Assembly (NCBI GenBank): GCA_963528245.1
Contig: CAURWB010000004.1
Coordinates: 774-64,773 of the forward strand
DNA: 64,000 nt
Direction of reading: 5' to 3'
DNA from: an uncultured Campylobacter sp.
Lineage (GTDB): Bacteria; Campylobacterota; Campylobacteria; Campylobacterales; Campylobacteraceae
The position numbers and the translations under genes were made by a program. This document shows, piece after piece, positions 8,048 to 40,362 of this stretch; within the stretch, counting starts at the first letter, position 1, and every line of letters starts with the position of its first letter. Below the pieces are notes generated by a model that saw only the letters and a list, made by a program, of their open reading frames with translations, was not told where the DNA came from and ran no database searches.

Positions 8048-8983
8048 CTAAAACAGCCCGAAATTTTGCTTTAAATTCTCTTTGATAGGCTCAAGCGGTA
8101 GCGAAACTTCGCTATTTTTGCTGCCGACTGCACCGTCAAAAAACGTAATCCCGCTTGGCGAGAGCGTAAAATTTTCGCTCGGAGTTATCTTTTCTTTTGC
8201 GAAAATCGCAGTCAAATTTGCGTCGTTTAAATCCTTAAAAACGTCGCCAAAATTTATCTTTTTTAGATTTTTTAGCCAGACGGTTTTGCAGATTTTCCCG
8301 CCGGCGCTGACTTCACATACGCTTCTTATTTTGCCGTTTTGATACTCGAGGTTATTTAGCGCGTTTGCGGCGTTTTTTGAGGGGTCTTTGAGCCATGTCG
8401 TTTTAAAATTTTCAAGTTTTGCGGCGAGGGATTTTTTGTTATTTTGCGCAAATTTTGGTGCATAAAAGTCGCTCGCGACGGCTTCAAATCGCGCCCCGTT
8501 TCGTCCGATCTCTTGCAGTCCGAGCGCCATAAAATCATAGCTTGCGACCTGCTTTAGCACGGCTTTTCGCGCCTTGCCTCTGATTGCTAGCTTGCCCGTT
8601 AGTTCGCCGTTATCCGCTTTTACGCTTAGATTTAGCCACTCGGTGACCGCGTTTACGGCCGTTATATCGGCGCCCGATCTTTCGATGTTGCCTTTACTGA
8701 AGTCGTATCTGGCACCCTCAAAAAATGCGTGCCCTTGAAATTTGGGCGGCAAAATGGCGCCCTTGTCGCTAAAATTTTCAAACTCGACCTCAAGTTCGCT
8801 GATGTAGAGCTCAAATTTGCTCCCGTCCGCCTCGCCTGCAAATTTATAAATTTTACCCTCGTTTTCGTGCCTAATCTCGTAGCCTAGCACCAAAACGCAG
8901 GCCAAAAATATCGCCGCAACCGCTCTCACAACCGCTCCTTTTATATGCCCAGTGCCCAGCGTGAAAACGGCGCGACCTCGCAT
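8048..8983 (-). CDS. Membrane-anchored hypothetical protein (C-terminus weakly DUF3298/RsiV-like)
   Basis: 311-aa ORF; single N-terminal hydrophobic helix (AVAAIFLACVLVLGY). The 43-nt overlap with the upstream ATPase suggests a later real start. Confidence 0.5.
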   Translation of the reverse strand: MRGRAVFTLGTGHIKGAVVRAVAAIFLACVLVLGYEIRHENEGKIYKFAGEADGSKFELYISELEVEFENFSDKGAILPPKFQGHAFFEGARYDFSKGNIERSGADITAVNAVTEWLNLSVKADNGELTGKLAIRGKARKAVLKQVASYDFMALGLQEIGRNGARFEAVASDFYAPKFAQNNKKSLAAKLENFKTTWLKDPSKNAANALNNLEYQNGKIRSVCEVSAGGKICKTVWLKNLKKINFGDVFKDLNDANLTAIFAKEKITPSENFTLSPSGITFFDGAVGSKNSEVSLPLEPIKENLKQNFGLF

Positions 8984-10035
8984 TTTATGCCCTCGATGCT
9001 CGTCTCGCCGGAGTTTGCCACGCTGATTGCTTGTAGCCTATTTATACCTAAATTTTTTAAATTTGCGTGCAGTTTTTTAAATTTTAAAAAGACCAAATCC
9101 GCATCGCTAAACGGCGAGCAAATGATAGAAAGTTTCCTTTTTGGCAGGAAAAAATCAAGCTCTTTGGTATAAAAAATCTGCTCGTTAAATTTGGCCAGCT
9201 CGCAAAAAACCGTGTTGTTAAAATTTTTAGCGAAGTCCTTTTTTAGACTTAGTGCGCTTTTAAACGCAAAGTCGTTAAAATAAAGCCTTTTCGCGGCGTT
9301 TGGCTCGTTAAATTTTTCCACTAGGCTAACCGCGCTCATATTTTCTAGCTCGCTAAGCGCGCCGTAAACGCTATCTTTTGAGATTTTTCGGGTGGATTTT
9401 AGCGTGCTAAAAATCTCAAAGACGCTCACGTTTTGCGCCTGAGCTTTCGCGCACTCTTTTAGCACGGCTAGTTGCGTGGCGGATAGAGACGATTTTAGCG
9501 CGATTTGTAGATTTGCCGCGACGTTTTCGGCGTCGCAAAAGGCCGACGCAGGACTCCTGCCATGAAGCAAAAAGTGGCTAAAAAGCGTCTCGGGATCGAT
9601 CTTTTTTGAAAAAAAGGCGATAAATTCCTCGTAGTCTAAAAAATCCAAATTTAGCTCGTTAAAGCCGTTTAAATTTGTATCTTTAAACCGCGAGGCGACG
9701 ATAAAATTTGATAAATTTAGCTCCAAAATCGGCTCAAATTTATCCCAAAATCTCTTCTCGAAATCATCGATCGCTAGAATTTTTATCTGAGGATTTTGGC
9801 GTAAAAACTCGGGCAAATTTGACAAAATATCATCCGCATCTATGCGAAGGTCGCCTAAATTTACGTACAAAAACTCTTTGCTCTCAAATGCCGATAAAAA
9901 ACCCGCGATCAGCGAGGTTTTGCCGCTTCCTATACCGCCCTTTATCAGCGTTTTTGGCGCTGTGATTTCAAATTTTCTATTTATAAATTTGACGTTTTTC
10001 GGCGGGCTTTGGTAGAGAGCGTTTAGAGTTTGCAT
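8941..10035 (-). CDS. P-loop ATPase (AAA/DUF4143-like ATP-binding protein)
   Basis: 364 aa; Walker A GGIGSGKTS and Walker B-like ILAIDDFE. Confidence 0.65.
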   Translation of the reverse strand: MQTLNALYQSPPKNVKFINRKFEITAPKTLIKGGIGSGKTSLIAGFLSAFESKEFLYVNLGDLRIDADDILSNLPEFLRQNPQIKILAIDDFEKRFWDKFEPILELNLSNFIVASRFKDTNLNGFNELNLDFLDYEEFIAFFSKKIDPETLFSHFLLHGRSPASAFCDAENVAANLQIALKSSLSATQLAVLKECAKAQAQNVSVFEIFSTLKSTRKISKDSVYGALSELENMSAVSLVEKFNEPNAAKRLYFNDFAFKSALSLKKDFAKNFNNTVFCELAKFNEQIFYTKELDFFLPKRKLSIICSPFSDADLVFLKFKKLHANLKNLGINRLQAISVANSGETSIEGIKCEVAPFSRWALGI

Positions 10036-10132
10036 TTTTAGCCTTTTAAATTTGGAAAATTATAGCAAAGTTTCCTTATAAAGAGGAAGCTAATTAAAAT
10101 TTGACGCCAAAAAACAAGGGTAAATTTAACGA

Positions 10133-10158
10133 TTTTTTTTAAAAAAAAAGGGGGGGGG
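10133..10158. repeat. Triple homopolymer T8-A9-G9 in a divergent promoter region
   Basis: Counted directly: T at 10133-10140, A at 10141-10149, G at 10150-10158; TAGAAT follows at 10160-10165. Confidence 0.95.
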
Positions 10159-10196
10159 ATAGAATGCGTTAAATTTTTATTTGAAAGGCGGATATT

Positions 10197-39183: not shown

Positions 39184-39202
39184 CCCCCCCCCCCCAAAAA
39201 AA
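39184..39202. repeat. Homopolymer C12 followed by A7
   Basis: Counted directly: C at 39184-39195, A at 39196-39202; lies in a 560-bp spacer. Confidence 0.95.
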
Positions 39203-39572: not shown

Positions 39573-40362
39573 ATGGAGCTTTCGCATATTATCGTTTTGG
39601 CCCTAGTTCAGGGTATTAGCGAGTTTTTACCGATCTCTAGCTCAGCTCACCTCGTGCTGGTGCCTAAGCTACTTGGCTGGGCGGATCAGGGGCTTGCCTT
39701 TGACGTCGCCGTTCACGTAGGCACGCTAGCGGCGATACTTTTTTATTTTAAAGACAGGCTTGCTGGGCTCGTGCGCGATTTTTTCGCATCTATCGCGCGG
39801 CGCGAGAAGGTCGGCGACAGCACGCTCGTGTGGTCGGTTGGCTTTGCGACCGTGCCGGTGGGGCTTTTTGGCGTTTAGCGACGCCATCGAGCAGTACGCT
39901 AGAAGCGGGCTCGTGATCGCGGCGATGACGATAATTTTTGGTATCGCGCTCTACGTCGCGGATAAAAAATCGGGCCTAAAAACAGAATACGAAATGACGA
40001 TCAAGCTCGCTCTCATCGTGGGGCTAGCACAGGCGATCGCGCTGATACCCGGCGTTTCGCGCTCGGGCGTGACGATGACGGCGGCGCTGATGCTTGGCTT
40101 TAGCCACAGCGCAAGCGCAAATTTCTCGTTTTTGCTCTCAATCCCCGTGATCGTGCTAGCAGGCGGGCTCGAGGCGGTGAAACTGATAAAAACCCCAGAC
40201 GCGCTACCTTGGAGCGACCTTGCTATAGGCGCGACGGTTAGCGGCCTTAGCGCGTATCTTTGCGTGCGGCTGTTTATGGCGCTGATCGCGCGCGCGAGCA
40301 TGCTGCCGTTTGTTATCTACCGCATGATTTTGGGCGTGTTTTTGTTCGTGATGTTTTTATAA
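39573..40362 (+). pseudogene. uppP: Undecaprenyl-diphosphate phosphatase split by a +1 frameshift in a T5 run
   Basis: ORFs 39573-39878 (EFLPISSSAHL motif) and 39760-40362 (PGVSRSG motif) are the two halves of UppP/BacA. Removing one T from 39865-39869 gives a continuous VPVGLLAFSDAIEQ. Confidence 0.8.

Follow-up and report, generated by a model that had tools for sequence, protein, structure and literature searches.

A hypermutable poly-G tract in the predicted promoter of a secreted, Hcp-like Sel1-repeat protein gene of Campylobacter showae-group bacteria

A series of three adjoining homopolymers, T8-A9-G9, is found together with a TAGAAT hexamer upstream of a gene encoding a secreted, Hcp-like Sel1-repeat protein within the window, which is the whole 64,000-nt stretch of DNA that was analysed. 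The series and the hexamer probably form the core promoter of this gene, and slippage of the hypermutable G tract would switch or tune its transcription, the promoter step being one that we infer. The earlier note on this DNA had proposed a candidate phase-variable promoter at this position; the mutability of the tract is borne out by lengths of G8 to G14 across near-identical strains, whereas the effect on transcription keeps the standing of a prediction.

Organization of the locus

The protein encoded divergently from the Sel1-repeat gene matches 43 loci within a species-representative genome collection, nearly all of which belong to C. showae or to oral Campylobacter MAGs and exhibit 93–97% protein identity. 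By these matches the host is a C. showae-group oral Campylobacter. The window is also 100% identical to the metagenome scaffold L053 over 3495 nt. The locus is framed by the following features.

8941..10035, minus strand: gene of the divergent P-loop (GIGSGKT) protein, used as the comparison anchor
10059..10067, minus strand: TGCTATAAT, a perfect extended −10 box of the divergent gene, ~85 bp from the G tract
10072..10088, no strand: palindrome TTCCTTATAAAGAGGAA, the left boundary of a variable slot
10938..10954, no strand: palindrome TTCCTTATAAAAAGGAA, the right boundary of the variable slot
10992..11020, plus strand: TTGACA-17-TAAAAT, the promoter of the S10 ribosomal protein operon, with the rpsJ ATG at 11086

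The divergent protein, which had been called an ATPase, carries a P-loop only and gave no significant match in Pfam or NCBIfam. The S10 operon has a separate promoter, and therefore the Sel1 gene is predicted to be its own transcription unit. The region between the P-loop gene and the S10 operon is a variable slot with lineage-specific content: ~18 lineages are without a gene at this position and ~20 have a Sel1 gene downstream of the poly-G module, with alleles that encode 215/216 aa, 206 aa, or 116 aa plus 211 aa. The palindrome TTCCTTATAAA[G/A]AGGAA is present in two copies around the slot in all lineages except L032, which has a single copy and no slot, an arrangement that fits loss by recombination between the copies. 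In a more distant species (L040), a Sel1 gene of 370 aa is located between the palindromes. At cassette-less loci (L001, L009 and others), AAAAGAAAATGCGTTAAATTT is kept ~100–125 nt 5' of the P-loop gene start; it aligns with G(n)TAGAATGCGTTAAATTT, resembling a promoter remnant without the G tract, and precedes ~280 nt of non-coding DNA.

The divergent intergenic region is 161 bp in length and reads CGA-T8-A9-G9-A-TAGAAT at positions 10130–10165. As the earlier note had described, the T8, A9 and G9 tracts adjoin one another at 10133–10158 and TAGAAT lies 31 nt before the Sel1 ATG at 10197. Its statement that TAGAAT follows the G run directly needs a small correction, because a single A (10159) separates the two. 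The features of this segment are listed below.

10133..10140, plus strand: T8 tract TTTTTTTT, predicted position −39 to −32; always T8 in the window's clade and T4 to T8 in other lineages
10138..10143, plus strand: TTTAAA, a −35-like hexamer at the T/A junction, 16 nt 5' of TAGAAT, called from its match to the consensus only
10141..10149, plus strand: A9 tract AAAAAAAAA, predicted position −31 to −23; always A9 in the window's clade and A2, A5, A6, A9, A10, A11 or A13 elsewhere
10150..10158, plus strand: G9 tract GGGGGGGGG, the hypermutable part, predicted position −22 to −14
10160..10165, plus strand: TAGAAT, the predicted −10 box, which with G10158 and A10159 reads G-n-TAGAAT and resembles the Campylobacter extended −10
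10171..10173, plus strand: predicted transcription start, A residues 6–8 nt past the −10 box, placed by the −10-to-start spacing and the leaders of C. jejuni
10184..10188, plus strand: AAAGG ribosome-binding site, 8 nt 5' of the ATG (compare the AAGGA consensus)

The predicted leader is ~25 nt in length. The triple homopolymer had been called unusual, and shuffling of the window supports this for its G run: in 100 dinucleotide-preserving shuffles a G9/C9 run is expected 0.04 times per window, so the G9 run is not expected by chance. Runs of this kind are observed at two loci, namely the G9 tract and a C12 run at 39184–39195, and the C12 run is the only G/C run of at least 7 nt in the window besides the G9 tract. 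The uninterrupted G9 run at 10150–10158 also exceeds the length of at least 8 G or C residues that is the Campylobacter threshold for a slip-prone repeat in phase variation (PMC6321876).

Length variation of the tract

A comparison of the tract among strains had been suggested as a check on the proposed promoter, with an invariant length as the result that would speak against it; the length varies from G8 to G14, both in near-identical strains and across lineages. Eleven sequences encoding an identical 164-aa protein (ten contigs from metagenome samples together with the window, 96.6–100% nucleotide identity, compared over 2.3–3.5 kb) all carry T8A9, and the G tract is G9 in seven of them, G10 in two, G8 in one and G14 in one. 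The G tract is the sole indel in three of the four alignments of a variant to the window, and it is one of two indels in the alignment of the G14 sequence. The contigs L003 and L044, which come from different metagenomes, exhibit 99.92% identity over 3825 nt and differ by two substitutions and one indel, G9 versus G10. Approximately 35 further lineages or contigs range from G8 to G14 (G8, G9, G10, G11 and G13, with G14 in run X17) and have conserved flanks. The repeat number therefore differs in close relatives while the flanks are conserved, which is the pattern of a simple-sequence repeat, and these alignments show the G tract to be a hypermutable repeat of this kind that gains and loses Gs.

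Between lineages the A tract also varies, from A2 to A13, and the T run varies from 4 to 8 nt. A length of G6 was found in two contigs from DDBJ (L045 and L051) and is unreliable, with other homopolymer anomalies present in both. Interrupted tracts (G6AGG, G4TG6 and GTG9) occur in some lineages, represented by L020/L052, L028, L033, L035 and X14. The A tract is slower-changing within the window's clade yet unstable between lineages, which would make the series a compound switch.

Variation within single runs was followed in assembler contigs, except for X33 and X34, and the Logan contigs drop rare variants. In the isolate run X6 (~1200x), G14, G15 and G16 are found together as assembler contigs at k-mer depths of 132, 25 and 3.7, for which a technical origin is possible. 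The second run of the same sample, X12, contains the same three lengths at depths of 28, 7.5 and 5.2; a length spread within a run at G14 may be a polymerase or sequencing artefact. The A tract beside the G run of X6 and X12 exhibits no plus-or-minus-1 variants, and the interrupted-tract strain X14 assembles as one clean contig at 178x. Six mock-community runs, which represent the same strain as X6 by an identical SNP pattern, have a mutually consistent tract that is ~2 G shorter, with the reservation that these runs may all derive from one reference assembly. All six contain one tract that is 3 nt longer than that of the window and is most simply read as T5A13G12. An apparent difference between X2 (A12G13) and X8 (A13G12) was dismissed as an artefact of gap placement, since the form tracks the contig strand across the six runs. 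The raw-read runs X33 and X34, from the same study as X1, gave zero reads on 9900–10400. Switching of the G-tract length within one culture is likely.

The Sel1-repeat gene and its product

The gene downstream of the tract and the features within and beyond its reading frame are as follows.

10197..10691, plus strand: gene of a Sel1-repeat, Hcp-like secreted protein; a 164-aa, frameshift-truncated allele with a signal peptide and three Cys-bracketed repeats
10629..10635, plus strand: A7 tract in the coding sequence; A6 in L020/L022/L030 and A8 in L027, both frame-shifting
10671..10674, plus strand: T4, where full-length alleles have T5; the truncating frameshift, common to L008 and all contigs encoding the same 164-aa protein
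10664..10843, plus strand: out-of-frame remnant, still open, in which the C-terminal end of the full-length protein and its last repeat are encoded

The description of this gene as encoding a secreted Sel1-repeat protein agrees with the Sel1 match and the signal sequence, but the 164-aa ORF is a cut-short allele that arose by a 1-nt frameshift (T4 for T5), and full-length alleles elsewhere encode 215–216 aa. The Pfam Sel1 profile (PF08238) matches the window allele with an E value of 3.8e-14 and a full-length allele with 5.7e-17. The N-terminus is predicted to carry a Sec-type signal sequence, MKKIMVFGLMSISALA, as judged by eye. The repeats are bracketed by Cys pairs with the spacings C-x7-C, C-x7-C, C-x8-C and C-x8-C, which would form disulfides in a protein that is predicted to be secreted. 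The product thus exhibits both marks of the Hcp/Sel1 family, a match to the Sel1 profile and Cys pairs 7–8 residues apart combined with a signal peptide. Its best solved relatives are HcpC (1ouv, E 9.5e-33) and HcpB (1klx, E 3.8e-11) of H. pylori.

The pN/pS ratio is 0.18 over the first 143 codons in 11 lineages, because of which the gene is considered functional, and it is 0.17 among the lineages with a frameshifted 3' end. By this measure the Sel1 gene is real and under purifying selection even in the truncated lineages. Frameshifts are present in 6 of the 13 complete alleles and are of three kinds: T4 for T5 (the window and L008), A6 for A7 (L020, L022 and L030) and A8 for A7 (L027). All three kinds remove the last repeat, and the frameshifts at A7 and T4/T5 could either serve to switch the C-terminal repeat or reflect recent decay.

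Retention of the module and its occurrence in C. rectus

Within 405 kb of related loci, only two G/C runs of at least 8 nt are found besides the tract, and both are unrelated to it. In L039, from a species with just 73% identity in the anchor protein, T4-A10-G10-TATAAT is located at the same place. TAGAAT is kept beside the tract in nearly all lineages, the exceptions being GAGAAT (L010/L030) and the TATAAT of L039.

A Sel1 paralogue encoded at another locus of C. rectus (202 aa, 36% identical) is preceded by ATTCTT-A(n)-G(n)-TAGAAT, 28 nt 5' of the ATG. This gene is located between an ABC ATPase gene and fliR in an arrangement that is not divergent, and in RM3267 it is annotated as a "Sel1 repeat protein" or as a "beta-lactamase", the latter being the usual annotation label for Hcp proteins. 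C. rectus contigs encoding an identical 202-aa protein carry A11G10, A9G11, A10G8, A12G14, A1G13 and AA-G4AG9, and one contig (L072) contains a scaffold gap within the tract.

Because G runs are rare in related DNA, the tract persists across species and the module recurs in C. rectus, the tract is, on these comparisons, a maintained feature of the locus. A broader proposal is put forward tentatively, and we hold it with less than even confidence: a portable A(n)-G(n)-TAGAAT module may exist in oral Campylobacter of the showae/rectus group and drive several secreted Hcp-like Sel1 genes, paralogous as well as allelic, that are located at various sites on the chromosome. Fast switching would come from the G tract and a slower reset of the range from the A tract, forming a two-dimensional contingency switch; the frameshift-prone A7 and T5 runs of the coding sequence would further allow the C-terminal repeat to be switched.

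Predicted promoter architecture

TAGAAT is the predicted −10 box, with a transcription start near 10172. It is favoured because it is conserved by the tract and in C. rectus, because it would yield a 25-nt leader that includes AAAGG, and because this hexamer is used in C. jejuni. In that species the −35 box is replaced at ~89% of the mapped start sites by a periodic A/T-rich region, 3' of which lies an extended −10 box, TGxTATAAT; leaders are mostly 20–50 nt in length with an AAGGA ribosome-binding site, and GGTAAAAT within the CRISPR repeats is an active promoter (PMC3656092). TAGAAT is the −10 box at a mapped C. jejuni start site on pVir, and G-rich extended −10 boxes are also in use.

In the proposed mechanism, Gs would be gained or lost by slipped-strand mispairing during replication. 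The three homopolymers would fill −39 to −14 of the promoter, with the A/T block acting as an A/T-rich upstream element that replaces the −35 box and the G run, at the predicted positions −22 to −14, acting as the spacer between this block and the −10 box. The last G of the tract would supply the G of the extended −10. With each slip the upstream block would rotate by 34 degrees and move by 0.34 nm with respect to the −10 box, so that both the distance and the helical phase would change, and the altered geometry would switch or tune transcription of the Sel1 gene.

The spacing from TTTAAA to TAGAAT is 16 nt in the window allele and becomes 17 nt with G10 and 21 nt with G14. In lineages with a short A tract, the distance from TTAACG to TAGAAT is 8 or 9 nt plus the number of Gs, by which the modal G9 gives 17–18 nt and the second mode, G11, gives 19–20 nt. 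These two modes would be the pattern expected of an on/off pair. The weight to be given to spacing is uncertain, since Campylobacter promoters lack a strict −35 box.

Alternative explanations

The main rival to a promoter switch, considered unlikely, is a neutral hot spot in which the tract slips as long G runs do in Campylobacter, Sel1 expression is independent of tract length and the locus is decaying. The points that count against a switch favour this explanation. The cassette is missing in about half of the lineages and the tract is interrupted in the several lineages named above, by which the module is, on the contigs compared, dispensable; independent frameshifts occur in the 6 of 13 complete alleles, and the target gene is itself frameshifted in the window; and, with a range as wide as G8 to G14 in a single clade, perhaps all lengths are tolerated. 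Neutral slippage is hard to align with the pN/pS of 0.18, which denotes purifying selection with the truncated lineages included, with the retention of an uninterrupted tract at the same place by TAGAAT across species-level divergence and at the C. rectus paralogous locus, or with the rarity of other G runs in related DNA. It is scarcely credible that the length variation itself arose from errors of assembly or sequencing in a long homopolymer. The six replicate runs of one strain give concordant tracts, the independent Logan contig X1 gives exactly T8A9G9, T8 and A9 are constant in the window's clade while G varies, and the differences of up to 5–6 nt are far above consensus error; these outweigh the breaks of contigs at the tract in X6 and X13, the scaffold gap there in L072 and the anomalous DDBJ contigs L045 and L051.

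Two further explanations assign the tract a different target. Transcription from an upstream promoter (CGATTT at 10130–10135 or GGGTAAATT at 10118–10126) would place the A/G run in the 5' leader, where it would act post-transcriptionally as in tlpB/RepG, and this is improbable. CGATTT is the C. jejuni sigma-28 −10 consensus and lies directly 5' of the T tract, and CGATTA is present before the C. rectus module. The C. jejuni FliA pattern, however, is TTT-N10-12-CGAT[AT/TT/TA] (Dugar 2013, PMC3656092, Table S6), and a sigma-28 promoter at CGATTT was rejected because no TTT lies 10–12 nt upstream, the only one being at a distance of 2 nt here and of 14 nt in C. rectus. An upstream sigma-70 promoter composed of TTGACG (10101–10106) and TAAATT (10121–10126) was rejected as well, on its 14-nt spacer and on a T-to-C change that turns TAAATT into CAAATT in several lineages; no upstream −10 box is conserved. 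Runs labelled as RNA contributed short fragments inside the gene and the X24 contig, which covers 10122–10301. This contig begins upstream of any such start, and its RNA label is a guess, such that it may be DNA. An Rfam scan of the whole window returned one tRNA and no other RNA family. Control of the divergent P-loop gene, or of both genes, as with the TA repeats of H. influenzae hifA/hifB, is very improbable even though the tract is located within the divergent intergenic region. Because TGCTATAAT, the perfect extended −10 box of that gene (10067 to 10059), is ~85 bp away, the tract is probably outside the divergent promoter; lineages without the tract keep the P-loop promoter unchanged, and the C. 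rectus module is not divergent.

Comparison with known systems

A Sel1 promoter that is switched by its own G tract would belong to a known class, the promoter-spacer homopolymers, which includes porA, opc, fim, vlp, sabA, nspA and Cj0565. In N. meningitidis, slipped-strand mispairing alters the length of a homopolymer in the promoter spacer of porA (poly-G) and opc (poly-C), and expression ranges from high to absent according to this length. The tract described here is likewise predicted to be located in a promoter spacer, but the Neisseria promoters have defined −35 boxes and measured effects on expression, whereas the present promoter is read from sequence. The fim2/fim3 genes of B. pertussis (poly-C) and the vlp genes of M. 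hyorhinis (poly-A) are controlled by a homopolymer just 5' of the −10 region, and in both cases paralogous surface or secreted genes each have their own tract. They share with the Sel1 genes a tract per paralogous gene upstream of the −10 region and differ in organism, nucleotide and gene family, and the fim promoters need the activator BvgA.

The G repeat in the 5' leader of H. pylori tlpB is bound by the small RNA RepG and acts after transcription. It resembles the Sel1 tract in that it is a G run of variable length preceding a coding sequence in an epsilonproteobacterium; the tlpB repeat is transcribed, whereas the conserved −10 box 3' of the Sel1 tract would place this tract in the promoter. 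The poly-T "rheostat" of H. pylori sabA is an A/T homopolymer near the −35 region that produces graded expression via DNA geometry. A poly-A tract near the −35 region of N. meningitidis nspA also tunes expression gradually through DNA geometry (PMC6389960). The variable A tract of the Sel1 promoter could act, by analogy, like the sabA and nspA tracts, which differ from it in being single A/T tracts, while here the A/T block is joined to a G tract that changes more rapidly.

Within the genus, intergenic tracts are a recognised, if little-studied, minority of the phase-variable loci of Campylobacter (PMC6321876, PMC8355987). In C. jejuni NCTC11168, the mapped primary start site of Cj0565 is preceded by TTGACT-G12-ATTTGA-TAAAAT and gives a 29-nt leader (Dugar 2013, PMC3656092, Table S4). 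As in the showae group, an uninterrupted G run is located between a −35-like hexamer and a −10 box, and Cj0565 is by this analogy a direct precedent within the genus. It differs in being a pseudogene with a single homopolymer on the −35 side, 6 nt before the −10 box; the showae-group tract is positioned by the −10 box, is fused to variable A and T runs, has a Sel1 gene as its target and belongs to a module that is present at a second locus.

The HcpA, HcpB and HcpC proteins of Helicobacter share with the Sel1-repeat protein a signal peptide and Sel1-like repeats bracketed by Cys pairs; the protein described here has ~four repeats in 215 aa, and the likeness is drawn from the sequence alone. 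The papers searched contained no account of Hcp/Sel1 genes under homopolymer control, nor of poly-G tracts in C. showae or C. rectus. The features that appear new are the host group, the gene family and the fused A(n)G(n) design recurring at two loci.

Other observations in the window and related contigs

A 3365-nt contig of run X6 contains another place with the same T/A/G homopolymer stretch followed by GTAAATGGGCTTTTATTTTTTAAAAAGGAA, and the module may exist at further loci in one genome.

A second long homopolymer pair, C12 followed by A7, is located at 39184–39202 within 561 bp of gene-free DNA that separate an isochorismatase-family gene from uppP. Contigs encoding an identical isochorismatase protein carry C8A8, C9A8, C9A9, C10A9, C12A7 or C15A7 at this position, and because the lengths vary among these contigs the C(n)A(n) tract is also considered hypermutable. 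There is no obvious target gene or −10 box near 39184–39202. The neighbouring uppP gene (BacA, 39573–40362) is split into ORFs of 101 aa and 200 aa by a 5-nt deletion (GCCTA) near 39870; the metagenome scaffold L075, which is otherwise identical over 2355 nt, encodes an intact product of 264 aa.

By far the most over-represented hexamer of the whole window is AAATTT, which occurs 468 times versus 22 expected from base composition, approximately once per 137 bp, in genic and intergenic DNA. GAATTC is depleted (5 versus 17). AAATTT fits RAATTY, which several methylome papers name as a conserved adenine-methylation motif of Campylobacter. Twelve copies of AAATTT are found around the tract, including one that coincides with the predicted start site (10171).

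Implications

Both C. showae and C. rectus live in the mouth and have been linked to periodontitis and inflammatory bowel disease. The phase-variable genes of both species are uncatalogued, and PhasomeIt makes no mention of either. In related bacteria, secreted, disulfide-stabilised solenoid proteins that modulate immune cells include HcpA of H. pylori and Csep1 of C. concisus (PMC12904459). If the promoter tract switches the Sel1 protein stochastically, strains would differ in what they display to the host, both within and between people, and such differences would be missed by genome annotation alone. The natural series of G8 to G14 combined with A2 to A13 offers a test bed for the role of spacing in epsilonproteobacterial promoters that have no −35 box. 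If the portable module holds true, it would represent a contingency switch for a family of likely host-interaction proteins.
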